From positions 52,311-116,310 of the forward strand of contig CAWGMK010000010.1 of NCBI GenBank assembly GCA_963823655.1: a DNA stretch of 64,000 nt, in the 5' to 3' direction. Under the pieces are notes generated by a model. The model did no database searches and was not told the origin of the DNA. It worked only from the letters and a program-made list of their open reading frames with translations. Of this stretch, positions 28,553-64,000 are shown piece after piece. Position numbers and translations under genes: made by a program. Origin of the DNA: an uncultured Bacillota bacterium. GTDB taxonomy: Bacteria > Bacillota > DTU025 > MWDF01. Position 1 is the stretch's first letter. Every line of letters starts with the position of its first letter.

Positions 28553-28655
28553 CGGGGCGGGCGGGGGCGTCGGGGCGCGGGGCGGGGCGGGGGCGCGGGG
28601 CGTGGGGCGCGGGCGCGGGGCGCGGGGCGCGGGGCGCGGCTGGCGCGGGCTGGCC
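28553..28655. repeat. G-rich heptamer tandem repeat (GGGGCGC and variants, ~14 units) immediately upstream of the dnaE start.
   Basis: gggggcgtcggggcgcggggcggggcgggggcgcggggcgtggggcgcgggcgcggggcgcggggcgcggggcgcggctggcgcgggctgg. It is C-rich on the dnaE coding strand. Confidence 0.8.
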
Positions 28656-35641: not shown

Positions 35642-36540
35642 ATGAGCGGTCGCGATCTCGGTCGTGCGTTCCGGGCGCACCCGCTGGCGGTCGCGGCGAG
35701 GCTGGCCATGGCGCTGTGCATGGCGCTGGCGGTGCTGACCGTCGGGTCCGTGTCGCTCTGTCGCGGTGCCGGGGTCGCTGGCCGGGCGGCGCGCCAGCGG
35801 TCGCCCTGGCGCAGGGCAAGCCCCCGCTCGACGATCCGGCCGTCCCGGTGCGCATCACCGTGCCCGCCCTCGGCATCGACCTGCCGGTGGTCTCGAGCGA
35901 GCGCACCGTGCCCGGCAACGTGCGCGACTACCCGCTCTGTGACGTGGCCCAGTACTGGGACATCTACGACCTGCCCGGTGCCCCGGGCACGACCTGGATC
36001 TACGCCCATGCCCAGCCGGGCATGTTCCTGCCGCTGCTGCTGAACGCGGAGGCCACGTCGGGCGAGGGACTGCTGGGTCAGATGGTGACGCTGCAGCTGA
36101 AGGACGGACGCCTGCTGCGCTACCGCATCGTGGAGGTCAAGCAGCACGCCTACAACCGCCGCCTCGCGCTGCGCGCCCGCCCCAGCCAGCAGCGACTCAT
36201 CCTGCAGACGAGCGAGGGGCCACCGGGCACCATCCCCAAGCTGCAGGTGGCCGCCAACCTCATCGGCGCCACGTGGACGGATGAGCCAGCCGCCCAAGGC
36301 CCAGCCACGCGCCTGCTGGCAGCCACGGCCGAAGCCGACCGACCGGGCGGCAAGGCGGGGCGCACGGGCGCCGCGAAGCCGACACCGCAGCCGTCGCCCA
36401 CGACCATGGCGGCCGGTGGCACCACCGACGCAGCCTCCCTCGCCCTGGGTGGCGGCGCGGTCCTCATCGGCGCCACGCTGGTAGCGATCTACATGGTCAG
36501 ACGGCCCGCTCCCGACCGACGGCAACCACCCCGCCGATAG
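35642..36540 (+). CDS. Sortase-fold membrane protein. The TLxTC catalytic Cys position reads Ser, and it has a C-terminal QPSPTT-TM-RR tail.
   Basis: N-terminal TM MSGRDLGRAFRAHPLAVAARLAMALCMALAVLTVGSV (35372..36043 frame). Sortase-like core: PVRITVPALGIDLPVVSSE...GAPGTTWIYAHAQPGMFLPLL...RLLRYRIVEVKQHAY...QRLILQTSEGPPG, where LILQTS replaces the expected TLITC. C-terminal ...KPTPQPSPTTMAAGGTTDAASLALGGGAVLIGATLVAIYMVRRPAPDRRQPPRR*. There is a frameshift near 35720. Confidence 0.45.
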
Positions 36541-36588
36541 AGCGGCCTGGGAGGACAGGCGGCAGCGACGATCGCCGCGGTTCGATCG

Positions 36589-36990
36589 TTATCGCCCACG
36601 ACGTCTTCGGTGCCAGGGCTCGAGTCGATAGGTCCGAATCAGGAACTGGTCGAAGAATGGGACAGTGAAATCCGCCAAGCCCAAGGCAGGCGAGTAGATC
36701 AGGCCTTTTTCGATCAGGCTCCCCCTGACAGTGCCGACCTCAGCGCTCGAACCGAGCCCCAGCTTCGATGCGATGGCGCCCGACCGTCGGGACTCCGGGG
36801 CGAGTTCAGCCATGGCTCGCAGGTATGAGATCTCGCGAGGTTGTGTCACGCGTGCCATGCGCCCCTTGAAGAACGACTCATCGAGCTCAGCCTCAAGCAG
36901 TGGAACCGTGGCGGCAACGTCGTCGGTGCTGATCGGCGAATGGTCCGCCACGTTCCAGACCCTGCTCCCGAACTCCTGGATGATGTCCAT
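36589..36990 (-). CDS. Hypothetical protein with a C-terminal winged-helix DNA-binding motif; local GC is lower (~58%).
   Basis: MDIIQEFGSRVWNVADHSPISTDDVAATVPLLEAELDESFFKGRMARVTQPREISYLRAMAELAPESRRSGAIASKLGLGSSAEVGTVRGSLIEKGLIYSP. The ORF could start upstream at 37056. Confidence 0.4.
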   Translation of the reverse strand: MDIIQEFGSRVWNVADHSPISTDDVAATVPLLEAELDESFFKGRMARVTQPREISYLRAMAELAPESRRSGAIASKLGLGSSAEVGTVRGSLIEKGLIYSPALGLADFTVPFFDQFLIRTYRLEPWHRRRRGR

Positions 36991-37131
36991 CGAGGCCTCT
37001 TTGCTGTGTTCACTGGTGTTTACAACCACCGTGTAAACCAAGATGAACGCTGTCAAGGATGCTGGACAGATCGACGGCCGGATCCTTCGCGGGATCCGGC
37101 CGTCGCTTGTGGTGGCGGAGGTTGGCGTGGG

Positions 37132-42759: not shown

Positions 42760-43016
42760 CGACGCTGGTGGATGATGACAGACGGAGCGAACCGTACCAA
42801 GAAAGCCCCGCACGGTTCGCTGCTGGCGCGAGACGATACTCGAGCCACGGCGCTTTCCGCACCGGGCCTGATAGTCCACCGGAGCCGTAGTACTTTCCCG
42901 AGCCCGCGGTCCGCGACGCCTCAGGCCCTCCACCGAGGCCCCGAAAAGCCGACGGCCGGGTCCCTGGTGGGAGCCCGGCCGTCGGGAGTGTCGCGATGGA
43001 TGCTGGCTAGATCTCG

Positions 43017-46000: not shown

Positions 46001-48780
46001 CGAGATGGCGGCCCCATTGGCGGTGCAGACGATGTTGGTGAGCGTGTAGCCGGGCTTCGCCGTCTCCGTCACGTACTTGGTCCCGAGTTCGAGACCGGTG
46101 AAGGGGAACGGGGCGTTGGCCGTCGGGTTGGTGACCGAGGTGTCGCGGTTGAACGGCGAGAGGGCCGAGCCTTCGACCGTGTAGGCGAAGGTCGCGGGGG
46201 CACCCACGGTGGTCTTCTCGATGTCCAGGGAGGCGTTCTGGGTGTTGGTGAAGACGCAGGTCGGGGTGTTCCCGGCCGCGATGACCGCCTGCACGGTCGT
46301 GTCACCGGCGTCGAAGTCGGCGTCGCCCACGAAGCCTGCGCCGGTGCCGGTGCCGATCGAGATGGCGGCCCCATTGGCGGTGCAGACGATGTTGGTGAGC
46401 GTGTAGCCGGGCTTCGCCGTCTCCGTCACGTACTTGGTCCCGAGTTCGAGACCGGTGAAGGGGAACGGGGCGTTGGCCGTCGGGTTGGTGACCGAGGTGT
46501 CGCGGTTGAACGGCGACGAGGGCCGAGCCTTCGACCGTGTAGGCGAAGGTCGCGGGGGCACCCACGGTGGTCTTCTCGATGTCCAGGGAGGCGTTCTGGG
46601 TGTTGCCGAAGTCGTTGTTGAGATAGGTCGGCGTCGTCGCGCTTACGGTCAGAGGACCGTAGTAGACCGTGGCAGGCGCCGTCTGGGTCCAGCCGTTCTG
46701 GTTGACTTCGTACACGTAGTAGGGGTCGTTCGCGGCGGTCGCCTTGATCGCATCCGGCGTGACCGAGAAGTAGTAGAAGCCAACGGGATCGATGGCACCG
46801 TTGCCATCCAGGTCGTCGGTCGTGCCGTTCGCGGTCTGGACACAGCCAAGGTTGCCGTTGTTCGGATTGCTGTCGCTGTCGAGACAGATCGTCCAATTGG
46901 CGAGGCCCGGCTCCCCGGCGTCCTTCGAGCCGTTCCCGTTCAGGTCGTGGAACTTCACACCGCTGATCTCGCCCTGGATGATCGCGTCCGGCGCGAGCTG
47001 GATGGATGTTGCGCCCGACCCGCCGATGTCGACGGTCGTCTGGAGCGAGCCGCCTGTCCAGGCACCAGCGCCGTTCGTCTTGCCTGCGCCCTGGTTGGGC
47101 ACCTCGCCCGGCTTGGCGATGTACAGGCCGTAGTAGATCGCGGCGTAGCCGTTGCTGGTGGTCGTCCCCGTGTAGGTGAACGTGATGGTGACGTGCCCAT
47201 CCTTGGTGCCTGAGCCCGTGTATGTGACGGCGCTGACGCCGGTGATGTTCGCGTCTACCGTGAAGAACGAACCCGCATGCATCCCGCCGTTATTGGTGAA
47301 CGAGCCGTCCTCCGTCGGCGTGATGGCAGGCGTGGCCCAGTCGAAGACGGTGGGCTGCCGGCTCAGGTTGTACTGCGTCATGTACGCGAAGCCACCGGCA
47401 TCGGTGTTCTGCTGGTAGTAGTTGTACGTGACGTTGAACGAATAGGACTGCCCGTTCACGAGCTGCGCGTTGTTGGACGCCCCGTACATGAAGACGTGGG
47501 GGATGACCTCGCCTTCGAAGTAGTTGGACTTGTTGGCGTTGAGGATGTTGTTGTTCCAGTCGCCGGGCAGCGGCTCGTCCGACCAGTGCGCGTAGGGCTT
47601 GGAGAAGCTGCCGGCCGCAGCGGGCTCGATGATCGGCTCCAGGGCAACCTTGGCAGCAGCCGAGGAAACGAGCGGCTCCTCGACCACCGGCGCCTCTTCG
47701 ACGACGGGCTCCGGCTCGACGACCGGAGCCTCCTCGACCAGCGGCGCCACCACCGGCTCGACGACCTGGGCGTCTTCGACCAGCGGCTCGACGATGGCGT
47801 CGTTGCCCTTGCCGTTGTCTTCCTTGTCGCTGTCCTTGGGCTCCTCGGCAGGCGTCTCCTCGACGATCGGAACGTCTTCGACGACCGGCTCCTCGGCAGG
47901 CGTCGCCTCGACGACCGGGGCCTCTTCGACGACTGGCTCCTCGGCAGGCGTCTCCTCGACGACCGGGGCGTCGTTGCCCTTGCCGTTGTCCTCGCCCTTG
48001 GGCTCGTCCTGGGCCGGCTTGACGCCCTGGCCCTCGTTCGTCGCCCTTGGGCTCGTCCTGGGCCTGCTTGGGCTCGTCCTGGGCCTGCTTGTCGCTCAGG
48101 CCCGCGCTGTCGGTCTTATCGTTCCTGGGTTCGTCGGCAGCGGTCTTGTCGCCCTTGGGCTCGTCCTGCCTGGACTGCTCGTCAGCCTTGGAGCCGTCGT
48201 TCTTGGGCTCGTCCTGGGCCTGCTTCGGCTCGTCCTGGGCCTGCTGCTCCTCGGCCTGGGGCTGCGCTTCGACAGCAGCCGGTGGCTCCGGCGCGGGCGC
48301 CTCCTTGACGACGAGGCTGGCGGCATAGCGAAGATCACCCAGGGTGGCAACGATCTTGCCTTCACCCGCGGCGACCGCGCTCAGCTTGGTGCGCTTGCCG
48401 GTCTCGTCCTCTTCGATGGCCAGGCTGGCCAGCGGCGCCGCCGGCATCATTCAGGGACCACTCCGCCTGGACGGGCTGACAGCCGACGGCCGCCGGCTCC
48501 TGGTCGGCGCGCGAGCGGCAAGCGTGACGCCTGGGTCACACGTCCATGCGCTGACCTTCTGGGACTCGCCCACCGTCAGCTTCAGCGGATCGGGATGCAC
48601 GTACAGGTTGAGCGCGGGAGCCGCCGGCTGGGCAGATTCCGCCGCTGCCTGCTCGTCCTGCGCGATGACCAGCGCCGGTGTCAGCACCAGCGATGAGATC
48701 AGCAGGAAGGCCTGCAAGACGGCGGTGAGCGCCACCGGGCCGCGCAGTCGGCGCGATTCGGACCTCGACATCGATACCAC
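43017..48780 (-). CDS. Giant cell-surface protein B (~1920 aa), a paralogue of A: signal peptide, N-domain, Glu/Lys/Gln-rich linker, SdrD-B-like domain, five tandem 119-aa repeats, prealbumin-fold (SpaA/Cna-B-like) domains, a poly-Gly run and a C-terminal QPPTDTL-TM-RR tail.
   Basis: Signal MSRSESRRLRGPVALTAVLQAFLLISSLVLTPALVIAQD. N-domain LNLYVHPDPLKLTVGESQKVSAWTCDPGVT. SdrD-B-like ISGVKFHDLNGNGSKDAGEPGLANWTICLD...NGTTDDLDGNGAIDPVGFYYF. Repeats NASLDIEKTTVGAPATFAYTVEGSALSPFNRDTSVTNPTANAPFPFTGLELGTKYVTETAKPGYTLTNIVCTANGAAISIGTGTGAGFVGDADFDAGDTTVQAVIAAGNTPTCVFTNTQ. Prealbumin-like GTIIVDKVTDPSGSPQLFTFDPSWGADFQL...GTYSVSETVPAGWDLTSTVC...GETVTCVFTNTQ. Tail ...GGGGGGGGQPPTDTLIPTDTVSAASGPLDSPMNW, then after a 1-nt indel SSILMSATVILSAGWVIRRVRTSEI* with the stop at 43017. 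Confidence 0.7.
44930..46561. repeat. Tandem array of ~4.6 near-perfect 357-bp (119-codon) repeats inside giant protein B.
   Basis: Identical six-frame ORFs recur at 44998, 45355, 45712 and 46069 (period 357 bp) on the coding strand and at 45138, 45495, 45852 and 46209 on the opposite strand. Confidence 0.9.
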
Positions 48781-49176
48781 TCCTCTGTGTGTGGTGGCCC
48801 CCGAAACGTCCCAGGCAGTGGCCTGAGGGATGAATGCGCCCCATCGAGGTCACCCCGATCGAGCCGGGCGTCGGGATCGTGCTCGGTACGGACCGTCCGC
48901 CGTACGAAAGTCTCAGCCCTGAACGGGCGGATGGCAAGGACCGATAGTACCTCTGGGGGCACATGCGGTGCTCCCCGGCACCAAGAGTTGTGTGACCAAT
49001 GGCCCTTGACGGCCCCAGACCCCCTCACGTCGGACCTCGACCGCACACCCTCGCATCCAACCTCGCCGTGAAGTGCACGCAGTCCACCAGAGCGCAGTAC
49101 CGCTGGAACGGGTACCCCCGGGCTACCACCGGTGCACGAGCCATTCGGCCCCCAGGGCGTAGCATCGGGCGCTCGA

Positions 49177-50283
49177 ATGCGCGCCCTCTCTGCGGCCGTC
49201 GCCGCGCTTCTGCTGACCACGCTGGCGGCCAGCCTCCCCACGCAAGCCACGGCGACCGACTACCCCGCGCGCGATGCCGGCTACCACTCGTACCCGGAGA
49301 TGGTCGAGCACATCCGGCAGGTGGCGGCCGCGCACCCGGACATCGTGCGGCTCTTCTCCATCGGCCAGAGCTTCGAGGGCCGCGAGCTCTGGGCGGCCGA
49401 GGTGTCCGACCAGCCGGGCACCGACGAGGGCGAGCCGGAGGTCCTCTTCGACGGCCTGCACCACGCGCGCGAGCATCTCAGCGCGGAGATGACCATCGCC
49501 ATCCTGGACCTGCTGGTCGGCCAGCTACGGCCAGGACACGCAGCTGGGCCGGCGGGTCACCCGGCTGGTGGACGAGCGGCGCACCTGGATCGTCTTCATG
49601 GTCAACCCCGACGGCCTGGCCTACGACCTGGGCGGCTCCCCTATCGCTCCTGGCGCAAGAACCGCCAGCCGACGCCTGGGTCAGCTGGCGCCGACGGCGG
49701 ACATCGGCACCGACCTCAATCGCAACTACGGCTACCGGTTCGGCTGCTGCGGCGCCTCGTCCGGCGACCCCGCCAGCCCCTACTACCGCGGCCCGCGGGC
49801 CTGGTCGGCGCCGGAGACGCGGGCCATGCGCGACTTCGTGCTGAGCCGCGTCGTGGACGGGCGGCAGCGCATCCGGACGCACATCACGTTCCACACCGCG
49901 GGCGAGATGGTGCTCTGGCCCTACAGCTACACGCGCGCGGACCGGCCGCCCGACATGCGCGCCATCGACCTGCGCGCCTTCCGGGCCATGGGCCGGGCCA
50001 TGGCGGCCACCAACGGCTACACGCGCCATGCAGTCGAGCGCCATGTACCCCACCGACGGCGACCAGATCGACTGGATGTACGGCGCGCCAGGGCATCTTC
50101 TCGTTCACCTTCGAGCTGTACCCCAAGGGCGGCGGCACGCCGCGGCACCACTACCCGCCCGACGAGATCATCGGCCGGGAGACCCGGCGCAACCGCGAGG
50201 CCGTGCTGTACCTCATGGAGCAGGCGGCCTGTCCGTACGCGGTGCTCGGGGCGCGCGCTGCGGAACGCCACTGTACGCCCTGA
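49177..50283 (+). CDS. Secreted M14-family zinc carboxypeptidase.
   Basis: Signal MRALSAAVAALLLTTLAASLPTQATA. YHSYPEMVEHIRQVAAAHPDIVRLFSIGQSFEGRELWAAEVSD...PEVLFDGLHHAREHLSAEMTIAILDLLV (zinc-ligand region). Second frame: RRTWIVFMVNPDGLAYDL...GTDLNRNYGYRFG...HITFHTAGEMVLWPYSYT. C-terminal IFSFTFELYPKGG...NREAVLYLMEQAACPYAV. There are at least three frameshifts. Confidence 0.7.
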   Translation: MRALSAAVAALLLTTLAASLPTQATATDYPARDAGYHSYPEMVEHIRQVAAAHPDIVRLFSIGQSFEGRELWAAEVSDQPGTDEGEPEVLFDGLHHAREHLSAEMTIAILDLLVGQLRPGHAAGPAGHPAGGRAAHLDRLHGQPRRPGLRPGRLPYRSWRKNRQPTPGSAGADGGHRHRPQSQLRLPVRLLRRLVRRPRQPLLPRPAGLVGAGDAGHARLRAEPRRGRAAAHPDAHHVPHRGRDGALALQLHARGPAARHARHRPARLPGHGPGHGGHQRLHAPCSRAPCTPPTATRSTGCTARQGIFSFTFELYPKGGGTPRHHYPPDEIIGRETRRNREAVLYLMEQAACPYAVLGARAAERHCTP

Positions 50284-50382
50284 GGCGCGGTCCGAAGCCG
50301 GCGCGGTCGGGTCGCTCGCATCGCCGGAGTCGTCTCCCGACCAGTGACGCGGCCCGTGTCGCCGCCCTGGCCGGTGACGCGG

Positions 50383-50432
50383 CCAGTCGTCGCCGCCAGG
50401 GTCGCCGCCAGGTCGCCGCCAGTCGCCGAACC
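50383..50432. repeat. Short tandem repeat of (a)gtcgccgccag(g), ~4 units, in an 870-bp gene-poor spacer.
   Basis: agtcgtcgccgccagggtcgccgccaggtcgccgccagtcgccg. Confidence 0.6.
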
Positions 50433-50598
50433 CTGCACCACAGGACAGTATCGACCGAGGCGTCCCGGCCAGAGCCCATGAGACCGCGGTCCCTTGGCCG
50501 CATGTGACATCCCACGTCACGCATGGCCAAAGGAACGCACCGAATCCGCCTCGCGTCGGCTCCCTGGCCCGCGCCGCCGGTCGATAGTGACCTCCAGG

Positions 50599-50940
50599 TC
50601 AAGCGCGGCCGCGAGCCGCCCCTGGCCCGCGCGGCCGGTCGATGGTCGACCTGCGCAGCGTCGAGCGCGGCCGCGACGCCGCCTCAGGCCCGCGCCGCCG
50701 CCTCTGGCTCGCGATGGTCGCGTTGCGATCGACGACCAGCCAGGCCTTGATGCGCAGGATCTCGGCGGGCGTCGGCACGCGCAGCGGCCCTGACGCCGTG
50801 CTGATCTCACGGGTCTCAAGGGGTGCCGACCGGCGCTGGTTGCGAACCGTCGTCATGATCCCGTCCAGGCGACCCATGATGACGACCGGGCTGTCGGCGG
50901 TCGGTCCGCCAGCCAGCGACAGCCTCCAGCGTGCGAGCAC
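50599..50940 (-). CDS. Hypothetical protein (113 aa), no recognisable family; it may be a gene fragment.
   Basis: ...DSPVVIMGRLDGIMTTVRNQRRSAPLETREISTASGPLRVPTPAEILRIKAWLVVDRNATIASQ... The only protein-like frame in the 50284-51157 spacer. Confidence 0.25.
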   Translation of the reverse strand: MLARWRLSLAGGPTADSPVVIMGRLDGIMTTVRNQRRSAPLETREISTASGPLRVPTPAEILRIKAWLVVDRNATIASQRRRRGPEAASRPRSTLRRSTIDRPRGPGAARGRA

Positions 50941-51157
50941 CTCGTCGAATCGGCCTGGGCACGACCATCACGTGGACTGCGTCCAGGGTCGTCGTGCACC
51001 CTCCGCGAGGCGCCGGACGGGCTGCGTGCCGGGACCTTCCGGGGGCACCGGCGACCCGCTACGATGGCGCCGTGCCCGACCCATCGTGTGCTGCTGGGGG
51101 GCGAAGACCTGAGCGGGTGAGGCGCCGTTGCGCCAGCCCGACACAGAGGAGGAGTGC

Positions 51158-52309
51158 ATGCGCAGGTTCACCACCGCATCCCTCGCGCTGACCATCGCGG
51201 CGACCGGCATCCTGGCCGGCGCGCTCGCGGTGGCGGCGCAGGACGGATCCGACCTCAAGATCGGCCTCGTGACGGACGTCGGCACGATCGACGACCGCAA
51301 CTTCAACCAGTACTCGTGGGAAGGCGCCGTCGCTGGCGCGGAGGCCGTCGGGGCTGCCGGAGCCGCAGTACGCCATCAGCGCGCAGTCGGCTGACATCGG
51401 CCCGAACATCCAGGCCTTCGTGGACCAGGGCTACGACGTCATCGTGACGGTCGGCTTCGCGGCCGGCGCGGACACCATCAACGCCGCCCTGGCCAACCCG
51501 GACATCAGGTTCATCGGCGTGGACCAGGCCCCCTGCATCAACGAGGACGGCACACCCGGACGACAGCTTCACCTGCGCCGGCGACCCGGCCGCGCTCCTG
51601 CCGAACCTCCAGGGCATCAACTGGCGCGAGCAGCAGCCCGGCTACCTGGCCGGCATCGTGGCCGCCTCCGTCAGCGAGACGCGGCCACATCGCCGCCGTC
51701 GGCGGCACGGCCGTCATCCCGGCCGTCGTCAACTACATCGAGGGCTACGCCAACGGCGCCAAGTCCATCAACCCTGATGCCGTCGTGACGGTGGTCTACG
51801 TGTCCGGCGCGCCCGGACACGGCGGCCTTCAATGACCCGGCCGGCGGCCAGTCCACCGCCCAGCAGCTGCTGGCCCAGGACCCGACATCGACGTCATGTT
51901 CCAGGTCGCCGGCAAGACCGGCAACGGCGTCCTCCAGGCCGCCTGCGACGCGGGCATCTACGGCATCGGCGTGGACGTCGACCAGTTCCTCTCCACCCCG
52001 GAGACGGCCGCCTGCACGATCGTCAGCGCCGAGAAGAAGCTGACCAAGAACGTCGCCGACGCCATCGAGCGCATCGCGGCCGGCACGGACCAGGGCGGCA
52101 TCCTGCGCCTGGGCATCGACACCCAGGACGTGGGCCTCTCGCCCTTCCATGACTTCGAGAGCCTCATCACCCCTGAGACCGCTGACACGCTTGACGCTGC
52201 CGAAGCGGCGCTGGCCGACGGCTCGCTCAAGGCCTGCGAGGAGCAAGAGGGCAGCGGCGTTCTGCGTGCAGACGCTGCCGTAGACGACGCCCTTCCAGGA
52301 GTCACCTGA
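51158..52309 (+). CDS. BMP-family (Med/PnrA-like) ABC transporter substrate-binding lipoprotein.
   Basis: MRRFTTASLALTIAATGILAGALAVAAQDGSDLKIGLVTDVGTIDDRNFNQYSWEGAVAGAEAVG. Then GYDVIVTVGFAAGADTINAALANPDIRFIGVDQAP. Then MFQVAGKTGNGVLQAACDAGIYGIGVDVDQFLSTPETAACTIVSAEKKLTKNVADAIERIAAGT in further frames. There are at least two frameshifts. Confidence 0.7.
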
Positions 52310-52387
52310 GTCCTTGTCGAACGGGCCGACCCCCAGGGCCGGCCCGTTCGAGTACCCGAGGCAGGAGAGCATGGGAAGCCCCGCGAC

Positions 52388-53990
52388 GTGACCGCGCTGG
52401 ACACCACCCTGACGCCCGAGCGCATCAGCGCGCCGGCGCTCGAGATGCGCGGCATCACCAAGCGCTACCCGGGCGTCGTCGCCAACGACGGCATCGACCT
52501 CGACGTGCGGCCCGGCGAGATCCACGCCCTGCTCGGCGAGAACGGCGCCGGCAAGACGACGCTCATGAACGTCCTCTACGGCCTGGCCACGCCGGACGCG
52601 GGCGAGATCCTGCTCGACGGGCAGGCCGTCGAGATCGCCGGCCCATCGGACGCCATCGACCGCGGCATCAGCATGGTCCACCAGCACTTCATGCTCGTGC
52701 CCGGTCCTGACCGTGGCCGACAACATCCTGCTCGGCGAGGAGGCCATGCGCGGACCGCGTCTTCCTCGACCAGCAGCGAGGCGCGCCGGCGCATCCGCGA
52801 GCTGGGCGAGCGCTTCGGCTTCGAGATCGACCCCGACGCAGAAGGTCGGCGAGCTGTCGGTCGGCTGGCAGCAGCGGGTGGAGATCCTCAAGGCGCTCTA
52901 CCGCGATGCGCGCATCCTGGTCCTCGACGAGCCGACGGCCGTCCTGACGCCGCAGGAGACCGACGAGATCTTCGGCGTCCTGCGGCGGCTGGCCGCCGAG
53001 GGCCACAGCATCATCTTCATCAGCCACAAGCTCTACGAGGTGCTGGAGATCGCCGACCGCATCACGGTCATCCGGCGCGGCAAGGTGGTCGGCAGTCGCA
53101 TCCCGAGCCGAGACGAACGAGGACGACCTGGCCGAGCTGATGGTCGGCCGCGAGGTCCAGCTGACCGTCGACCGCGGCGCAGAGCCATCCGGGCGAGGTC
53201 ATGCTCGCAGGTCGGCGGACCTGCGCGTGCCGCGACGACCGCGGCCGCGAGGTCGTCGATGGCGTCAGCTTCGAGGTGCGCGCGGGCGAGATCCTGGGCA
53301 TCGCCGGCGTCGCCGGCAACGGCCAGGACGAGCTGGTCGAGGCCATCACGGGCCTGCGCCAGCCGCACCGGCGGCACGGTCACGCTCGGCGGCGAGGACG
53401 TCACGCAGGCGATGGCCCGCGGGCCCTGCACGGGCAGGACGTCGCCTTCGTGCCCGGCCGACCGCCAGCGCTTCGGCCTGGTGCTCTCCTTCCCCATCGC
53501 CGACAACCTCGTCCTGACCGACTACTACGCGGCGCCCTACTCGCACGGGCATCGTCCGCGACGAGGCGGCCATCCTGGAACGCGCCGAGCGAGGCGATCG
53601 CGGAGTACGACGTCCGGACGCCGTCGTGCGACCGTCAACGCCGGGACGCTCTCCGGCGGCAACCAGCAGAAGGTCATCGTGGCCCGCGAGTTCGACCGCG
53701 ACCTGCAAGCTGCTCGTGCTCGACCAGCCGACGCGCGGCCTGGACGTGGGCAGCATCGAGTTCATCCACCAGCAGGTCATCGCCAAGCGCGATGCGGGCA
53801 CGGCCGTCCTGCTCGTCTCCGCGGAGCTGGACGAGGTCCTGGAGCTCTCCGACCGCATCGCGGTCATGTACCGCGGCGGATCGTGGCGGTCGTGGACGGT
53901 CGCACCGCCAACAAGGAGGAGGTCGGCCTGCTGATGGCGACCGGGGGCCGGAGCGAGGCGCCAGACGAGACCGGAGCCACAGGCCGATGA
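52388..53990 (+). CDS. ABC transporter ATP-binding protein with two fused NBDs (nucleoside/sugar-type).
   Basis: NBD1 [48 protein letters not shown]...[15 protein letters not shown]...[18 protein letters not shown]2 [20 protein letters not shown]...[15 protein letters not shown]...[27 protein letters not shown] start at 52388. There are several frameshifts. Confidence 0.8.
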
Positions 53991-55156
53991 GCCCCGACGA
54001 GAAGCCCATGAGCACCATCGATCGGCTCCTGAGCCGATCGCTGCGGGGCCAGCTGGCCGTGACGGGCGGCGCCATCGTCCTGGCCCTCGTCGTCGGCGCG
54101 GTGCTCATGATCCTGACCAGCCCCATCATCACTGGCAGCCTCGACCCATGGCTCTGGGCAGAGGCCTACCTGGCGCTGGTCGCAGGGCGCACTGCTGAGC
54201 TCGAGCGGCCTGATCGACACGCTCGTCCGCGCCACGCCGCTCATCCTGGCGGGCCTCTCCGTGGGCCTCGGCTTCAAGGCCGGCCTGTTCAACATCGGCG
54301 CCCAGGGCCAGTTCCTCATGGGCGCCCTGGGCAGCGTCGCGGCTGGCATCGCCCTCGCGCGACGCGCCGTCCATCGTCGCCATCCCGCTCGCCCTCCTGG
54401 CCGGCGTGGCGGCGGGCGCGGCCTATGGCTTCATCCCGGGCTGCCTCAAGGCGTTCACCGGCGCCCACGAGGTGGTCATCACCATCATGCTCAACTACAT
54501 CGCCCTCCAGATCGTCTCGTGGGCGGTCAGCGAGCCGCTCCGGGCCCGCGGCGCCACGTTCGCGCGGACGACGACGTCGGCGAGGCCGGCATCCCGGTCC
54601 TGATCGGCACACGGGCACAGCTGCATCTGGCGTGCTCATCGCGCTGGCCGCCGTGCCCATCGTCTGGTGGCTCCTGTACCGCACCACGCTCGGCTTCGAG
54701 ATCCGCACCGTGGGCGCCAACCCGGATGCGGCGCGCTACGCCGGCATGCGCCCGCGCCTGATCATCGTGCTCACGATGACGCTGCGCGGCCTGCTGGCCG
54801 GCCTGGCCGGCGCCATCGAGATCCTGGGCGTGCACGGACTACATGCCGGCCGCCTACGCCACCACGGTCGGCTTCGACGCCATCGCCGTGGCGCTGCTGG
54901 GCCGCGCCAACCCGTGGGGCATCCTGCTCGGCGGCCTGCTCTTCGGCGCCCTGCGCGCCGGCGCCCCGCTCATGCAGATCCAGGCCGGCGTCCCCGTCGA
55001 GATGATCGACATCCTGCAGGGCGTCATCCTGTTCTTCCTGGCCGCCGACCTCATCGTGCGCTGGGTCTTCCGGCTGCGCGAGACGCGGGGCGGCAGTGTC
55101 GACGAGCTGCAGACCGTGACCAGCAGCTACGGCGGTCGACCGCCACGCGGGGCTAG
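53987..55156 (+). CDS. ABC transporter permease (BMP-system permease 1).
   Basis: [46 protein letters not shown]... It continues in shifted frames with [29 protein letters not shown]..., [19 protein letters not shown] and ends [36 protein letters not shown]. Its ATG overlaps the ATPase stop. Confidence 0.65.
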
Positions 55157-55161
55157 GCGCT

Positions 55162-56242
55162 AGCGTGGACGTCCTCTTCGACATCCCGGTCGTCGGGCTC
55201 TTCTTCCAGCTCGTCGACTACCTCATCGTCGTCCTGCCATCGACTGGCGCCGATCATCCTGGCCGCTCGCGGCGCCCATCGCCCTGGGCGCCTGTGCGGC
55301 CTCATGAACGAGCGCTCCGGCGTCGTCAACATCGGCATCGAGGGCATGATGCTCACGGCCGCCTTCGTCGGCTGGTTCGCGGCCTCGCTGGTCGTGCAGG
55401 TCTTCCCTGACCAGCCCAAGGCCGACTTCGCCTTCGGCGCCACGCCGGCGCTGCTCGTCGGGCTCGCTGGCCGCCCTGCTGACCGGGATGGCCGTCTCCG
55501 CGATCCACGCCTGGCTGTCCATCACCGTCCGGGCCGACCAGATCATCAGCGGCACGATCATCAACATCGTGGCCTTCGGCATCACCGGCTACCTGAATCA
55601 TCATCATCAGCGCGCTCGTCCCCGCCATCGGCCGGCAAGTTCGCACCGTTCGTGCCGCCCGCGTGGCTCACCGACCTGCCCTTCGTCGGCTGGCTCTTCG
55701 ACATGTTCCTCAGCCAGGGGCCGATCGCGATGTCTGTCCTGCTGCTCGCCGTCGTGCTGCAGGTGCTGCTCTTCCGGTCGCGCTGGGGCCTGCGCACCCG
55801 GGCCGTGGGCGAGCACCCGAAGGCCGCCGAGACGGTCGGCATCGACGTCATCCGGCTGCGCTACCGCAACGTCATCCTGGGCGGCGTCTTCGCGGGCCTG
55901 GCGGGCGCCTGGTTCACCCTGGAGCTTCGGCACCAACGTTCCAGACCGGCATGACCGGCGGGCGCGGCTTCATCGCCCTGGCGGCGCTCATCTTCGGCCG
56001 CTGGACGCCGCTGGGCTCGTTCGGCGCAGCGCTCCTGTTCGCGGCCGCCGGATCGCTCGAGCATCGCCATCCGCACCGTGCCGCCGACCGGCCAGCTGGG
56101 CGAGATCCTGACCGCGATCCCGGACCAGTTCTGGTCCGCCCTGCCCTACCTCGTGACCATCATCGTCCTGGCCGGGGTCGTGGGCCGCAGCGTGGCTCCG
56201 GCAGCGGTGGGCAAACCCTACGAGCGAGAGAGTGCCTCGTAG
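55162..56242 (+). CDS. ABC transporter permease (BMP-system permease 2).
   Basis: [25 protein letters not shown]... It continues with [34 protein letters not shown], ...[18 protein letters not shown], ...[16 protein letters not shown] and ...[37 protein letters not shown] across frames. The stop is TAG at 56240-56242. Confidence 0.65.
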
Positions 56243-56650
56243 CCCGGACGAGCCGGAGCAGGCCGGGGCAGGGCCGGTCGTGACGCCGGTCCCCGTCCTT
56301 GACGCGGAGGGTGCGCGAGCGGTCCTGCGGGCGGCGCGGCGGATCGCGGTCGTGGGCGCCTCGCCCTACCCGTGGCGCGCTTCCAACGTCGTCATGGCGT
56401 ACCTGCTCGAGCAGGACTACGAGTGCGTGCCCGTCAACCCAGAGGCTGCCAGCGTCCTGGGCCAACCCTGCTTCCCGACGCTGGAGGCGGCGGTCGCGGC
56501 CGGCGACGGTCGCCCCTTCGACATCGTGGACGTCTTTCGCCGGGCCGAGCACGCACCGGATATCGCTCGCTCGGCGGGCGTTGACGATGGCGGCGCCGGC
56601 CACGGTGGAGGTGGGTGCGACGCGCGTCGCGAAGCCATCCACCTCGACGG
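56232..56650 (+). CDS. CoA-binding domain protein (YccU/CoA_binding_2-like); the 3' end is uncertain.
   Basis: [93 protein letters not shown]. It converges on, and may overlap, the SIS gene's 3' end. Confidence 0.55.
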
Positions 56651-57188
56651 CGGCATCGCCCACGGCGCCGCCGTTGTCGATGGCCACGTCCACGAGCTCG
56701 TGGAGCCCGGCGGCCCCGGGTCCCGCGCCGAGCCGGACGACGCGTGGCGCAGGCTGGTGATGGCGATGGTCCGCACCCCGGCCTCGCTCGCCGCGCGCGC
56801 CATCTCGCGGCTGACCGCGTTGCTGCCCGAGTTGGACGCGATGAGCAGCACATCACCGGGCGCCATGGCGTGGTCCGCGGCCAGCGCAGCGGCGAGCCCG
56901 GGCAGCCGCTCCAGGGCCGTGCTGAGCGCCGTGCTCCCGTGAAGCGTCAGGCCCTCGAACAGGATGGCCGGACCCGGACCAGGCCGCCGGCGCGGTGGAA
57001 CAGCTCCTCCCGCGATGATGGCGAGTGCCCGAACCGAAGCTGTGGATGGTCCCGCCGGCGGCGAGCGCATCGGCCATCAGCGAAGCCGCCGCGTCAATTC
57101 GCGGCCACTCCTCGGTGCCGAGGCGGGCGACGAGCTCCTCCGCGATCCGGAGGTAGCGCTGGCCGGCGGACGCACGCTCGCTCGTCAT
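56560..57188 (-). CDS. SIS (sugar isomerase) domain protein, GmhA-like.
   Basis: MTSERASAGQRYLRIAEELVARLGTEEWPRIDAAASLMADALAAGGTIHSFGSG. Then ALERLPGLAAALAADHAMAPGDVLLIASNSGSNAVSREMARAASEAGVRTIAITSL. Then [40 protein letters not shown] in shifted frames. The ATG (rc of cat at 57186-57188) abuts the GC-content break at 57189. Confidence 0.6.
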
Positions 57189-57189
57189 A

Positions 57190-60100
57190 ATACGGGTAAT
57201 GTGGCCCTAGATATTACACTGTCTGATGCCCTTGATGGCATGACGCCCATTAATCCGCTTCCTATAATCCTGACAATTGGTCCTAGCGGAAATTCCTTGG
57301 ATATAATCAATATCACCTATTCCAGGCCATGGTCTCCAGGTCAGCATCACAACATCGCGACAGTGACTACTCAATACGCGGGGGCGACTGCTCAAGACGA
57401 TGCCTACTATTTCGGCATCATGCCCACCATTGAGATTGTCAAGGACGGCGCGTGGGTAGATGGCAATGCAGATGGACACCCTGATGCGGGAGAGCTCATA
57501 AACTATACATTTACCCTCTCCAACACAAGCAATGTTGATCTGCACATTGTTACAGTAACCGATCCACTGTTAACTGTTCATGGCGGTCCTATCACGCTAC
57601 ATATGGGAGAAACGAACTCGACAACATTCACCGGTTCGTATGTGATAACCCAGGCGGACATTGAAGCAGGCTTCGTTTACAACATAGCGACAGCGGATTC
57701 AGTTGAATCTCCTCCGGCTACCAGCGAAAAGACAGTCTTGCTGCCGCAGTATCCAGCGCTGTCGATTATAAAGAACGGCTTCTGGATCGATGACAACGAT
57801 GATGGAAACGCTGATCCGGGTGATCTGCTCAACTACTTCTTCACCGTAACTAACATAGGGAACGTTGCGCTCCACAATGTTGTGGTCACAGATCCTAAGG
57901 TGGTAGAAGTGGGCGGGCCTACGACACTGGATGTCGGCGAGGCGGACTCGACCACATTCATGGGCTCGTATGCGATAACCCAAGCCGACATCGATGCCGG
58001 TTTCGTGTACAACATCGCCACCGCTGACTCCACTGAATCGCCTGCTGCCACCGGCGAAGAGACGGTCGCGCTACCTCAATACCCTCTGCTTTCGATAGTG
58101 AAGAACGGAGTTTGGGTGGATGGCGACGCGAACGGAAAAGCTGACCCAGGAGAGCTCGTCAATTACACCTTCACGGTAACTAACGTAGGCAATCTAACAC
58201 TCCACAATGTGACGGTTACGGATCCTAAGATCACAGAGGTGGGTGGGCCTACGACTCTGGATGTCGGTGAGGTTGACTCAACCACGTTTACCGGTTCGTA
58301 TTCGATAACCCAGGCGGATATAGACGCCGGCTTCGTATACAACATCGCAACTGCAGACTCAACTGAGTCACCTGCAGCCACAGGTGAAAAGACTGTCATG
58401 TTGCCACAAAATCCGCTGCTTTCGATAGTGAAGAATGGCGCTTGGGCAGACGGCAACGCAGACGGCAACGCAGACCCGGGAGAGCTCATCAACTATACAT
58501 TTGTAGTCACAAACCTCGGGAATGTGACGCTTCATAATGTTACAGTCACAGATCCCAAGATTATTGAAGTGGGCGGGCCGACCATCCTGGCAGTCGGCGA
58601 GGCAGACTCGAGCACATTCTCCGGCTCATATGCAATCACCCAGGAGGATATAGACGCCGGCATCGTCTACAACATCGCCACAGCGGACTCTACTGAATCG
58701 GGTGCCGCCAATGGCGAGAAGACCGTAACGTTGCCACAATACCCGCTGCTTTCGATAGTGAAGAACGGCACCTGGGTTGATGGCAACGCTGATGGCAATG
58801 CCGATCCCGGAGAGCTGATCAACTACACCTTCACGTTAACGAACACCGGTAATGTGACGCTTCATAATGTGACCGTTACGGATATAAGGATTACGGAACT
58901 GGGCGGGCCTACGACCCTGGATGTCGGAGAGGTTGATTTCGACCACATTTACTGGTTCGTATGCAATAACCCAGGCGGACATCAACGCCGGCTTCGTATA
59001 CAACATCGCCACCGCTGACTCCACTGAGTCGCCTGCCGCTACCGGCGAAAAGACAGTCGCACTGCCTCAATACCCACTGCTATCGATAGTGAAGAACGGA
59101 ACTTGGGTGGATGGCGACGCGAACGGCAATGCAGACCCAGGAGAGCTCATCAACTACACATTCATAGTCACCAATCTCGGGAATGTAACTCTTCACAATG
59201 TAACTGTCACGGATCCGAAGATCGTAGAAGTGGGCGGGCCTACGACACTGGATGTCGGCGAGGCTGACTCGACCACATTCACAGGCTCGTATGCGATAAC
59301 CCAGGCGGACATCGACGCCGGCTTCGTGCACAACATCGCAACAGCTGACTCCACTGAGTCGCCTGCTGCTACCGGCGAGAAGACGGTCACGCTGCCTCAG
59401 TACCCAAGGCTTTCAATAGTGAAGAATGGCGCTTGGGTTGATGGCAACGCTGACGGCAATGCCGACCCCGGTGAGCTCATCAATTACACCTTCACGGTAA
59501 CGAACATAGGAAACGTGACGCTCCACAATGTAACTGTCACGGATCCTAAGATCACTGAAGTGGGCGGGCCTACGACCCTGGATGTCGGCGAGGCTGACTC
59601 GACCACATTTACAGGTTCGAATGCGATAACCCAGGCGGACATCGACGCCGGTTTCGTTTACAACATCGCAACAGCGGACTCCACTGAGTCGCCTGCTGCT
59701 ACCGGCGAGAAGACCGTCACGCTGCCGCAATCACCAGCCCTGACTTTATTGAAGAATGGTGCTTGGGTTGATGGCAACGCGGACGGCAACGCTGATCCTG
59801 GAGAGCTGATCAATTACACCTTCACGGTAACGAACATAGGAAATGTGACACTTCACAACGTGACCGTCACAGATCCTAAGATCGTTGAAGTGGGAGGGCC
59901 TACTACACTGGATGTCGGCGAGGCAGACTCGACCACATTTACAGGCTCATATGCGATAACCCAAGCAGACATAGACGCGGGCTTCGTCTACAACAACGCT
60001 GTAGCCGATTCGAACGAATTCGAATTCCACGAATGGAAATAAGACCGTAACGCTGCCACAGTACCCGCTGCTTTCGATAGTGAAGAACGGCGCTTGGGTT

Positions 60101-63100
60101 GATGGCAACGCGGATGGCAACGCAGACCCCGGAGAGCTCATCAACTATACATTCATAGTCACGAACCTCGGGAATGTGACGCTTCATAATGTGACAGTCA
60201 CAGATCCTAAGATTGTAGAAGTGGGCGGGCCTACGACCCTGGATGTTGGCGAGGCAGACAATCGCCACATTCACAGGTTCGTATGCGATAACCCAGGCGG
60301 ACATCGACGCCGGCTTCGTATACAATATCGCAACAGCTGACTCCACTGAGTCGCCTGCTGCTACGGCGAGAAGACCGTCACGCTGCCTCAGTACCCAAGG
60401 CTTTCAATAGTGAAGAATGGCGCTTGGGCTGACGGCAACGCTGACGGCAATGCGGACCCCGGTGAGTTAATCAATTACACCTTCACAGTAACGAACATAG
60501 GAAACGTGACGCTTCACAATGTAACAGTCACAGATCCTAAGATCGTTGAAGTGGGCGGGCCTACGACCTTGGATGTCGGCGAGGCAGACTCTAGCACATT
60601 TACCGGTTCATATGCGATAACCCAGGCAGACATCGACGCAGGCTTCGTATACAATATCGCAACAGCTGACTCGACTGAGTCGCCTGCCGCCAATGGCGAG
60701 AAGTACGTCACACTGCCGCAGTACCCGCTGCTTTCTATAGTGAAGGACGGAGCTTGGGTTGATGGCAACGCAGACGGCAATGCAGACCCAGGAGAACTTA
60801 TTAATTACACCTTCGTAGTAACGAATGAGGGGAATGTGACACTTCACAATGTGAGAGTCACAGATGCAAAAATTGTGGAAGTGGGAGGGCCTATCACTCT
60901 GGATGTCGGCGAGTCTGACTCGAGCACATTCACCGGTTCGTATTCGATAACCCAGGCGGACATAGACGCGGGCATGGTATTTAACAGGGCAACAGCTGAT
61001 TTGGACGAGTCGCATTCCACAAATAGCGAGATTACAATCCCGTTGCCGCAGTACCCGCACATGAGCATTAACAAGACCGCACTTGAGACATCAGTCAGCA
61101 CGCCTGGTTTGATCCACTACAATGTGGTTCTTACAAATGACGGCAATATCACCCTAAATGGAATTACGCTTGCCGATACCCTAGTTGCTAATCCCGGGGC
61201 GAAAGTTGAATTGCAGACGGCCAACGATCAGCTAAACGTTGGCGAGACGTGGACCTGGACATATACATACTTTGTCAATCAGGCCGCAATCAACCTGGGG
61301 GACAGCATAGTAAACACGGCGACGGCCAGCTACTATTTCCAGCAGCTGGAGCCCGTTAGCGACAGCGTAACGGTAAGCATAATCCAAAACCCCGCATGGA
61401 GCCTTGATAAGACCGTGCTGGAGACCGAAATAAGCTCTCCGGGTGATTTGCATTACACAGTAGTGCTAAGTAACGACGGGAATGTCGACCTTACCGGTAT
61501 AGTCCTGGTGGATACGCTGGTCGCAAATCCAGGAGCACCCGTAGAATTGCTATCAAGCAACGGCATCTTGAATGTAGGGGAGACATGGACCTGGTCCTAT
61601 ACCTATTACGTAGACCAGGCGGCTATAAACCTCGGACAGTCTATCACCAACGGGGCAAGCGCAACATGTGCACAGTTGCAAACGCTTCCCGCAGGGGATG
61701 AGATTGCAGTGACCATTCTGCAAAACCCCGCATGGAGCATCGATAAGACGGCATCCGAGGAAACGGTGGGCGCACCAGGCGATTTGCACTACACGGTCGT
61801 TCTAAGCAACGACGGAAATATCGACCTGACGGGGATAACCCTGGTTGACACATTGGTGCCTGATCCGGGCCTGCCTGTAGAATCGCTTTCAAGCAACGGC
61901 ATCCTGAATGTGGGCGAGACGTGGACCTGGAGCTACATTTACACCGTAGGCTGGGATGCTCTCTACCTCGGTGACGATGTAGAAAACACAGCGACCGCAA
62001 ACAGCGACCAGCTGGAAGGCTATCCTGTCTCAAGCGGGTTCTCCGTGGTAGTAATCCAGGATCCGAACTGGCAGCCGGGACTTGAGATCACAAAAGAAGC
62101 AACCCCCGGCTCCGCAGCAGTGGGCGACATAGTCACATACCGGGTCAGCATCTTTAACGACAGCGAATTGCCCTCACCTATGACTGCTTACGATGTAGTC
62201 CTGGTAGACGACCTGCCAGACGGCTTCAGTTATATTGCAGGCACATCACACCTGGATGGGGTGCTTATCGCCGACCCGATAGTGTCGGGTTCAGAGGTAT
62301 CGTGGCCCATAGGGGACATAGAGATGGAAGAGGGCCACGTACTGACCTATAAAGTTGGAATAGGCGCTGGAGCGCTCAATGGGGATGGCATCAACTACGT
62401 AACCGCAATCGGTATTGGCGAAGCCAGCTTCCCGTTCGAGATAGGTCCCGCCTCAGCTCAAGTAATAATAACCGGACCCGCGTTCTCATCGCATGGGGCC
62501 ATCTTAGGCAAGGTGTTCCATGATAAGGATGCGGACGGTATGCAGGACAAGGACGAACCGGGCATTGCAAACGCCGAAGTGATCATGGACGATGGCATGA
62601 GCGCTCGCACCGATGAAGAGGGCCAGTACCATATCGGCCAGGTTAAGCCCGGAGTGCGTTCCATTAAGCTCAATCTGGGATCCCTGCCGGCAGGGTCGAC
62701 GCTCACAAACAGCTTCAAGGATGTAACGGGCATATCGGCATCGTTCTTCGTAGATGTGCTGCCATCAGGAGTGGCAAGGGCCGACTTCGCAGTAGGCATG
62801 CCCAGTCAGGCGAAGGAGCCTGTAGGAAGGCCGGGTGGCTCAGAGCCGCTAATCATAACAGGGACAATCGAGCTTACCCACAACGTGAGCGGTTTCGACG
62901 GCTCCTATATAAGGGCCAGGGCGTTCCTGATGAAGAGGTTCGAGGGAGGCTCCCTGGTGCTTAGGTACGATATGCAGCAGGGCATTGCGGACGGATTGTA
63001 TTCGGACGCGTCGGATGATCCGATGTACAGCCTGTACGGCGATGGCTCGGGCACAACGAACCTCGCCCCGTCATCAAGCCCGTTCTATGCGAAGCTTGAT

Positions 63101-64000
63101 TCGAAGTACTTCGACATCGCATGGAGCGACTTCCAGCCCGCGTTCGAGTCGGTCGAGCTGGCAAGCTTCATGACCAAGATGACGGGAGGCCAGGCTTCAA
63201 TAAAAGTAGGAGGCTTCTCGCTAGAAGGCTTCGTAGCCCCCACAAGGGCAGGCATGCAGACCGACAGGATAGCAGGAAACGGCACCTCGGGATACTTCTT
63301 CCTGGATGACTACCCTGTAGTAACGGGCAGCGAGACAATCTACGTAATCCGTACGAGGTTCTACGATGAAAGCATAATACTCGACAGGAAGCTTCTCATT
63401 CGCAACCTGGACTACAAGATCGATTACTCGACAGGCTCCATACTGCTCACAGACGCCATGCCGTCATACGATGAGGAGGGCAACAAGTACTTCCTCGAAG
63501 TGACATACTCGATTACGGGCGGCGATTACGACGGGCTTGCGGCAGGCATCAGGGCGCATGCGGACTTTGGGGCCTTCGACCTTGGGGCGACTACCGCGAT
63601 AAGCAACAAGAGCGGTGGAGTCAGTACGGTAGTAGGGGCGGATATGGGCCTCGACTTCGGCGAGGCGTTCACCTTCGACGCAGAAGGCGCAGTATCCTTC
63701 GCCTCAGGGATATATGGAGGATATGCCGTAAAGGCAGGCGCCGCATCCAGGATAGGCAAGGTCGAACTGAGAGTAGAAGCAGGAGCGAGCGACGGAGGCT
63801 TCGTAAAGCCGGGTGAGACGGCCACAATGCCAAGGCAGATCACTCTGTACGGCTCGGCCGGAATTGATCCTGCTGAAGCGCTCATACTGTCGCTTACCAG
63901 CAATAATGCCTGGAAGGGTCTGGACTACAGCTTCAGCAGCGAAAACAAGCTGACAGCTGGATACAAGCTGCCTTTGAAGTTCGGCGTGGCGCTAGGCATG
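57190..64000 (+). CDS. Partial, low-GC giant repeat surface protein: DUF11/DUF7507-type ITQADIDAG repeats, further conserved-repeat domains, an SdrD-B/Cna-B-like module and a large C-terminal region. It has no start codon at the 5' boundary and runs off the window end.
   Basis: ~10 tandem 114-aa units ITQADIDAGFVYNIATADSTESPAATGEKTVTLPQYPLLSIVKNGTWVDGNADGNADPGELINYTFTVTN.GNVTLHNVTVTDPKI.EVGGPTTLDVGEADSTTFTGSYA. Then ...PAWSIDKTASEETVGAPGDLHYTVVLSNDGNIDLTGITLVDTLV...GETWTWSYTY repeats. Then GKVFHDKDADGMQDKDEPGIANAEVIMDDGMSARTDEEGQYHIGQVKPG. The frame is open to 64000. There are frameshifts near 58930, 60010, 60260 and 60365. Confidence 0.6.
57640..60990. repeat. Tandem array of ~10 near-identical 342-bp (114-codon) coding repeats in the low-GC segment.
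   Basis: Recurring DNA blocks ...ataacccaggcggacatcgacgccggcttcgt(a/g)tacaacatcgc(a/c)ac(a/c)gc(t/g)gactc(c/a)actga(a/g)tc(a/g)cctgc... with 342-bp period. Six-frame ORFs on both strands repeat accordingly. Confidence 0.85.

Follow-up and report, generated by a model that had tools for sequence, protein, structure and literature searches.

Can a bacterial chromosome change its base composition within a few nucleotides, in the middle of the genes on both sides, or does such a step belong to the assembled sequence rather than to any organism? The question is raised by a 64,000-nt stretch of contig CAWGMK010000010.1 (assembly GCA_963823655.1; the window, below), in which guanine-plus-cytosine (GC) content falls abruptly at the start codon of a minus-strand gene for a SIS (UPF0309-type sugar isomerase) domain and a giant, start-less gene for a repeat protein of adhesin type follows on the low-GC side. 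We find that the window is made up of three pieces, A (1–56576), B (56577–57188) and C (57189–64000). In all probability it is a three-segment chimera, A–B–C, most likely the product of one multi-segment chimeric read or of a misjoin at a poorly supported contig end, and the GC step is almost certainly an artefact, a feature of no genome.

A chimera is the simplest account because two arbitrary joins lie 612 bp apart, three genes are cut, junction features are absent and the end of the high-GC sequence is error-rich. A previous sequence-only reading of this DNA had left the choice between a chimera and a very recent, truncated insertion undecided; the second breakpoint, the three cut genes, the broken synteny and the lack of recognised mobile-element features favour the former and disfavour the latter. 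The pieces, the breakpoints and the cut genes are as follows.

1–56576: piece A, high-GC (71%) chromosomal sequence, Limnocylindria-like (Chloroflexota), with many single-base indel errors
56232–56576, plus strand: CoA_binding_2 gene (PF13380 match), truncated at its 3′ end, with the last ~45 codons gone
56576/56577, accuracy ~3 nt: breakpoint 1 (A–B); CoA-binding similarity stops at ...DIARSA (56576) and SIS similarity stops after ...AAIVNA (56577–56579)
56577–57188, minus strand: piece B, orphan fragment of a SIS_2 (UPF0309-type sugar isomerase domain) gene, codons 1 to ~205 of ~245, with three frameshifts
57188/57189, accuracy ~2 nt: breakpoint 2 (B–C), the GC step, reading ...gctcgtcat/aatacgggtaatgtg...
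57189–64000, plus strand: piece C, internal and 3′ part of a giant fibrillar-adhesin gene, 53.6% GC, without its 5′ end and running off the window

Two breakpoints and three cut genes

Across 57188/57189 the DNA reads ...gacgcacgctcgctcgtcat/aatacgggtaatgtggccctagatattacac..., and the change in composition is sharp, with values for 300-nt windows dropping from 0.72–0.76 to 0.51–0.47 over 57050–57500. GC is 0.72–0.76 up to 57199 and 0.47–0.55 from 57200 in 300-nt windows, and in 1-kb windows it is 0.65–0.78 over the first 57 kb and 0.52–0.56 over the last 7 kb. A two-segment maximum-likelihood scan puts the change at 57184, its eight best-scoring positions all falling within 57177–57186, and overall GC is 71.0% to its left and 53.6% to its right. 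The sharp drop at the SIS start codon described in the sequence-only reading therefore holds to within a few bases of 57188/57189, as does its figure of ~70% for the high side; the 45–52% given for the low side is below the mean found here. The tetranucleotide comparison proposed in that reading sets C sharply apart from A, as an outlier with z=6.9, and after normalization for GC the tetranucleotide correlation of C with A is 0.45, compared with at least 0.86 for all sub-windows of A.

A second breakpoint, which had been missed, lies 612 bp left of the GC step, at 56576/56577. Between 51.0 and 56.5 kb, A is colinear with many related metagenome contigs, in the order BMP-type lipoprotein, ABC ATPase, two permeases and CoA-binding gene, and this similarity stops at ~56573–56576. 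The CoA_binding_2 gene is cut at the same place: its Pfam PF13380 match covers profile positions 1–76 of 116, and in all 25 of the 25 related metagenome contigs the CoA-binding protein goes on for 44–49 aa (VATGxxALWLQLGV...MDRCT...) past the divergence point ...DIARSA.

On the other side of this breakpoint, the SIS gene of B is cut as well. Reconstructed across its three frameshifts, the protein matches the NCBIfam model NF002805 at positions 4–203 of 247 only, short of a full-length family match. SIS homologues are 243–269 aa long, and in an alignment with eight of them (245–269 aa; identity 61–67%) similarity ends after ...AAIVNA. The SIS start codon, at 57186–57188 on the minus strand, agrees in position with the start in most homologues. 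At the DNA level, B aligns to the SIS genes of three related loci (L004, L007 and L008) only between 56578 and 57187, and the alignment to L007 starts at base 2 of the SIS gene. The sequence-only reading had taken this gene to have lost no more than its promoter region; what is present is a 3′-truncated orphan fragment. Neither the tail of the CoA-binding protein nor the C terminus of the SIS protein was found anywhere in the window.

Gene order in related genomes separates B from A. SIS sits in an operon in all six related loci retrieved, and the gene that follows overlaps its stop codon in each of them. The order in L007 and L008 is BadF/BcrA-type kinase, SIS, GH84 NAGidase, solute-binding protein and permeases, with a GntR regulator ahead of the kinase in L008; in L004–L006, the loci with the closest homologue, an acetyltransferase gene replaces the kinase upstream of SIS and is followed, after SIS, by the GH84, solute-binding protein and permease genes. 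A tblastn search of the window for these operon partners found none of them, recovering only the SIS fragment itself as four frame pieces, and among 80 CoA-binding loci none has a SIS gene nearby. Because the operon partners are absent and none of the 80 loci carries SIS, B is an orphan piece of another locus and not a neighbour of A. We considered whether the A–B join could be a small deletion between naturally adjacent convergent genes, and rejected this, given the same 80 loci and the place of SIS in a different conserved operon.

The arrangement of SIS_2, GH84 NAGidase, solute-binding protein and two permeases is a conserved Chloroflexota operon in its own right (L004–L008). Its gene content suggests an N-acetylhexosamine or glycan salvage locus in which the SIS protein would act.

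The third cut gene fills C. Right of the GC step there is one protein frame, spread by indels over three reading frames of the plus strand (57102–59015, 58888–60039 and 60350–64000). It begins mid-domain: compared with a repeat unit (...INYTFTVTNIGNVTLHNVTVTD...), the first residues past the junction, NTGNVALDITLSD, already lie ~32 residues in. The sole in-frame start upstream is a spurious ATG at 56964, within antisense high-GC DNA, and the frame has neither a signal peptide nor an N-terminal region, leaving a gene fragment only. In this respect the sequence-only reading, which described a start-less plus-strand repeat-protein frame running mid-domain from 57189, was right.

All three genes that touch a junction, CoA_binding_2, SIS and the adhesin, are thus cut. 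Three of the four cut gene ends lie at arbitrary positions and the fourth, the 5′ end of SIS, coincides with its start codon. Checks of gene truncation and synteny can reveal breakpoints that are hidden from GC, as here the A–B join between two high-GC pieces.

Lineages of the pieces

Judged by its proteins, A is Limnocylindria (Chloroflexota) sequence. It carries housekeeping genes, including uvrB, polA, dnaE, corA and a P-type ATPase gene. A fragment of its DnaE (26071–27709, minus strand) is 93% identical to a Joint Genome Institute (JGI) protein, P0123, the closest relative of A by DnaE identity, and the named relatives of this DnaE are Candidatus Limnocylindrales/Limnocylindria, of the Chloroflexota. 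The SIS fragment of B points the same way: its closest homologue, P0003, is 77% identical in a BLASTP local alignment, and the names among its homologues are those found for A, Limnocylindria/Chloroflexota. A and B have a GC content of 71–75%, and the contigs of their relatives 65–74%.

The relatives of C lie elsewhere. A word-indexed search of 5.8 billion proteins with the C-terminal 518 aa of C gave two matches only. The better of these, P0001, is 55% identical over its residues 82–497 to the C-terminal module of C and is located on a 3.6-kb JGI contig (L001) whose GC content, 53.3%, is like the 53.6% of C. An hmmsearch extends the family to 1,161 proteins that share the module at E≤1e-10. 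Few of these are named: three proteins from Pseudomonadota, in two 90%-identity clusters, one from a zetaproteobacterium and one from a metagenome-assembled genome labelled ‘Firmicutes’. The family of C has no close GTDB relative, and the exact 34-mer at 57189–57222 has no match in GTDB genomes. Scans of genome and metagenome contigs with two 8-aa motifs found no relative of the C module, a result that shows the absence of close relatives only.

The two sides of the GC step therefore appear to come from different lineages. The search for relatives of the low-GC part that the sequence-only reading called for thus returned named family members that are mostly Pseudomonadota, and its guess that the low-GC side might be Chloroflexi (or Archaea) is reversed, the high-GC side being the chloroflexotal one.

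A probable chimeric join and its rivals

Three properties expected of a chimera are present at this locus: an abrupt change of composition, arbitrary truncation of genes, and different lineages with synteny ending at the join. They resemble what has been described for chimeric reads and contigs (Meta-NanoSim, PMC10025935), in which segments of different loci or species are joined arbitrarily without common sequence, and the error-rich, long-read-type consensus and weakly supported contig end are likewise in keeping. Multi-segment chimeric reads, within and between species, make up 1.7–8.2% of nanopore metagenome reads (PMC10025935), and one such read can extend or bridge contigs at low depth. 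The likeness has its limits, as the indel profile of the window, with single G or C insertions outside homopolymers, is not diagnostic of a platform, and the 10-nt repeat found near both joins (below) is no described hallmark of chimeric reads.

A sequence of events that would give rise to the window can be proposed. A real Limnocylindria contig, A, would lose read support toward its end and be continued by a 612-bp fragment, B, taken from elsewhere in that genome or in one from a similar high-GC organism; B would in turn be joined to C, DNA of an unrelated bacterium of ~53% GC. The fragments would have been joined during library preparation or sequencing, giving one multi-segment chimeric long read, and the assembler would have accepted this read, uncontradicted at a thinly covered end, so bridging A to a better-covered foreign contig. 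What we infer here is an origin in vitro or in silico for the join and one chimeric read as its cause; the breakpoints, the truncated genes, the lost synteny, the differing composition and relatives of the pieces and the indel profile are shown directly.

The distribution of errors is in line with such a course. The window is an error-rich, long-read-type consensus: uvrB (3264–5450), polA (9924–13708) and dnaE (24013–28770) are each split over several reading frames, and the frameshifts are therefore sequencing or consensus errors rather than marks of pseudogenes. As an error reference we used a short-read JGI contig (L011), which is colinear with the window over 5.5 kb at 87.3% identity and has four intact open reading frames (ORFs). 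Relative to it the window shows 56 gaps, nearly all of 1 nt, comprising 41 insertions and 15 deletions in the window, the insertions being mostly a single G or C outside homopolymers. Indels amount to ~10 per kb in the last 5.5 kb of A, compared with 0.6 per kb in C (4 in 6.8 kb), and there are three frameshifts in the 0.6 kb of B. The four single-base indels that break the adhesin gene, placed by alignment of its repeat units, are insertions at ~58938, 60019 and 60260 and a deletion at ~60363. In a track of third-codon-position GC phase (GC3-phase Viterbi), frame switches number 1–13 per 2 kb across the window, and they are densest in the last 9 kb ahead of the junction (48000–57188), at 6–13 per 2 kb, several times the level in most of the contig. 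GC does not account for this peak, and the density is only partly usable as a proxy for coverage. Such a pattern would arise where coverage by reads dwindles toward the true end of contig A before better-covered sequence takes over; it is supportive only, because A also holds low-error stretches (36–48 kb).

Searches around the joins returned little that could explain them otherwise. No tRNA lies near them, the only one in the window being tRNA-Leu at 17203–17288, and there are no runs of N at the joins and no remnants of SMRTbell, Oxford Nanopore, Nextera, TruSeq, 454 or Ion adapters near them. The junction region has no repeat of at least 17 nt in common with other parts of the window, which led us to reject a repeat-mediated misjoin or recombination. 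No plasmid or phage DNA matched C, and a plasmid or phage origin was set aside. Pfam and NCBIfam scans of the plus-strand frame of C, which fills the visible 6.8 kb, found adhesin-type repeat domains only; no integrase or transposase was recognised there, the scans covering the plus-strand frame and not, separately, minus-strand ORFs. One short repeat is found beside both joins.

56564–56573, plus strand: 10-nt direct repeat CGCTCGCTCG, copy 1, 3 nt left of breakpoint 1
57175–57184, plus strand: 10-nt direct repeat CGCTCGCTCG, copy 2, 4 nt left of breakpoint 2

On the plus strand, CGCTCGCTCG occurs nowhere else in the 64 kb; its two copies are spaced 611 nt apart, each beside a breakpoint. Dinucleotide-preserving shuffles of the whole window contain a mean of 1.57 copies on both strands combined, and by a rough estimate the chance of a pair at both joins is ~1%. 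As junction microhomology the repeat was rejected, since its geometry does not fit, and it is left unexplained.

Several points weigh against a chimera formed in this way. The CGCTCGCTCG pair near both breakpoints is not predicted by simple ligation, and a piece B that starts exactly at a start codon is unexpected for random breakage. The step in error rate is not clean, as the 36–48-kb part of A has only 1–3 frame switches per 2 kb, and the density of frame switches correlates weakly with GC (rho=0.35, p=0.07). Public data yielded no native parent contig for either side. C continues beyond base 64000, where a second junction with the host is possible, and we infer the artefact from the assembled sequence, not from an observation of reads.

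Other ways of producing the same sequence have to be weighed against these observations. Breaks inside genes at arbitrary positions on all sides, joins without overlap, repeat or Ns, and pieces that differ in composition and lineage are also what a file-level concatenation would leave, that is, an artefact of data handling in which three records of a draft genome or bin were joined without a spacer. Such an origin would, however, require a 612-bp stand-alone contig with long-read-type indels (three frameshifts), which is unusual for a long-read assembler, and would place together contigs of 71% and 53% GC, which are rarely in one bin; we consider it unlikely. A variant of the chimera account differs in how the chimeric molecule arose: a polymerase jumping between templates at short microhomologies, during multiple displacement amplification (MDA) or polymerase chain reaction, would give a physical A–B–C molecule that was then faithfully sequenced and assembled. 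The occurrence of CGCTCGCTCG 3–4 nt from both breakpoints would suit this variant, but the two copies flank B and are not common to the two sides of any one junction, and the joins themselves, GCG/GGC and CAT/AAT, are without evident microhomology. Chimeras from MDA are for the most part inverted joins inside a single molecule, unlike the present case, in which C comes from another organism. We hold template switching of this kind to be quite improbable.

The remaining alternative is genuine biology, in which a recent insertion from a distant donor of ~53% GC entered a Limnocylindria chromosome and was accompanied by local deletions or rearrangements. Compositionally foreign DNA abutting host genes does resemble a fresh genomic island: the abrupt GC drop, the shift in oligonucleotide usage and a surface-protein gene on the foreign side are all features of islands, the host carries DUF11 adhesins of its own at 37–48 kb, and lateral movement has been reported for adhesin-type genes that carry DUF11 domains (PMC12617251). 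The details fit an island poorly. Deletions would have to have removed the 5′ part of the adhesin gene, the upstream region and 3′ end of SIS and the 3′ end of the CoA-binding gene, so that at least three independent events would be required within 612 bp, and the orphan SIS fragment would have to leave a conserved operon. The boundary host genes are cut rather than intact, the cargo gene is cut mid-domain and lacks its 5′ part, and an extra orphan fragment of host type stands between host and cargo. The window offers no tRNA or intergenic attachment site at the joins; the sole nearby direct repeat, the 10-mer, flanks B rather than the foreign segment, whose far end is not reached within the window; and the scans made of the visible 6.8 kb recognised neither an integrase nor a transposase. 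There is also zero amelioration, the GC of C being equal to that of its relative's contig, and nowhere in the contig is sequence quality lower than in the flanking 9 kb. Chloroflexota are not generally known to have a classical outer membrane, and the outer-membrane barrel predicted for the cargo would have no obvious place in their envelope. We regard an insertion as very improbable. The same holds for its full form, a physically real junction at which a Limnocylindria bacterium captured an unameliorated segment of a barrel-anchored adhesin gene from a distant diderm donor, with deletions and a translocated SIS fragment; were this slim chance to hold, Chloroflexota would have received a surface adhesin from another phylum unusually recently.

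A join of this kind has practical consequences for the use of this contig. Bases 56577–64000 should carry a quality flag, as they are not to be attributed to whichever organism supplied the first 56.6 kb, and gene calls, taxonomy or horizontal-transfer inferences that cross 56576 or 57188 would be wrong.

Repeat adhesins and an unannotated C-terminal module

Whatever its route into the contig, C contains a gene whose domains can be recognised. Beyond the junction its features are as follows.

57616–60999, plus strand: tandem array of 10.2 units of 330 nt (110 aa, ...ITQADIDAGFVYNIATADS...; Tandem Repeats Finder, 79% matches, score 3727)
62510–62710, plus strand: SdrD_B-like domain (PF17210, E=4.4e-07; residues 721–787 of the fragment starting at 60350)
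62771–64000, plus strand: first ~410 aa of an unannotated C-terminal module, a conserved region and the start of a predicted large beta-barrel

Pfam identifies DUF7507 (PF24346, now CLIPPER_2) in C with E=3.8e-86, 4.8e-68 and 9.6e-86 and DUF11 (PF01345, CLIPPER) with E=1.8e-29, and TIGR01451 also matches. The DUF11-like units and the SdrD-B-like module seen in the sequence-only reading are thus both found by Pfam (PF01345 and PF17210). Its ten tandem repeats are likewise there, at 10.2 copies, with a unit of 110 aa in place of the 114 aa it gave; its C-terminal region of more than 650 aa is not, as ~430 aa follow the SdrD_B domain within the window and the gene is predicted to run ~380 aa beyond base 64000.

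CLIPPER and CLIPPER_2 domains, some of which (among those of DUF11) lack an intramolecular isopeptide bond, are isopeptide-bond stalk domains that form the stalks of giant surface adhesins in diderm and monoderm bacteria and in archaea (PMC12617251). The tandem DUF7507 and DUF11 domains of C, with E values down to 1e-86, match this architecture; as a gene, C is unremarkable within the CLIPPER/CLIPPER_2 fibrillar-adhesin class and is present as a fragment. It differs from the characterised Acinetobacter CLIPPER adhesin at the C-terminal end: that protein has an OmpA-like anchor, whereas the relatives of C have an unannotated module of ~790 aa with a predicted barrel of ~30 strands.

Sequence searches of Pfam, NCBIfam and the PDB return no match for this module. 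An AlphaFold2 model of P0001 (mean predicted local distance difference test score, pLDDT, 64.8) contains ~31 consecutive antiparallel strands over residues 340–874, with pLDDT mostly 70–88. The best PDB matches of the model in Foldseek are without exception large barrels of the outer membrane, namely SprA, FimD, SlpA, LptD and TonB-dependent receptors, at TM-scores of only ~0.2. From this 55%-identical relative, the C-terminal module of C is predicted to form an outer-membrane-type beta-barrel. Relatives of the module (P0001, P0243, P0272, P0281 and P0287) end in ...YLK/RxxxKF, and the form ...YLKAxxKF is found among relatives too.

One full-length relative, P0243 (2,172 aa), gives an idea of the complete protein. 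It has a signal peptide, Big_1/Invasin_D3, CarboxypepD_reg and DUF11 domains and a C-terminal region ending in ...GFYLKAMLKF, with ~1,270 aa upstream of the common module. Its order of signal peptide, long passenger of Ig-like repeats and C-terminal all-beta module ending in an aromatic residue recalls type V secretion. The predicted barrel of ~30 strands is, however, far from the 12–16 strands of known autotransporters, and the module has no autotransporter, BamA/TpsB or usher Pfam match and TM-scores of ~0.2 to solved barrels, so that the likeness would be one of resemblance and not of membership. Taken with the domains described above, the model suggests that the gene in C belongs to a diderm-type organism and specifies part of a fibrillar adhesin that is secreted and probably anchored by a barrel. 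In giant repeat adhesins the ~790-aa module may act as an undescribed kind of large-barrel anchor in the outer membrane or as a secretion module; as a large unannotated family, it may merit separate study independent of this window.

A carries giant repeat proteins of its own. A cluster of DUF11-type proteins occupies 36500–48500 on the minus strand, probably one or two genes split by a few frameshifts. It contains a 357-nt tandem repeat present 5.0 times at 44811–46605, 99% identical and without indels, and a 378-nt tandem repeat present 2.3 times at 40209–41076. Two of the host adhesin ORFs share a QP(S/P)TDTL motif, at 37132–37300 and 42921–43100 (both minus strand). In ORF 37132–38547 a glycine-rich stretch comes after the motif, then a hydrophobic helix and finally a basic tail (...GWAFIVLVAAMMIVSGAWLIRRHRLART), an arrangement that resembles a C-terminal sorting signal, although no NCBIfam model matches this candidate. 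The adhesins of the two pieces thus differ at their C-terminal ends, ORF 37132–38547 of A ending in a hydrophobic helix and basic tail and C in a predicted barrel module.

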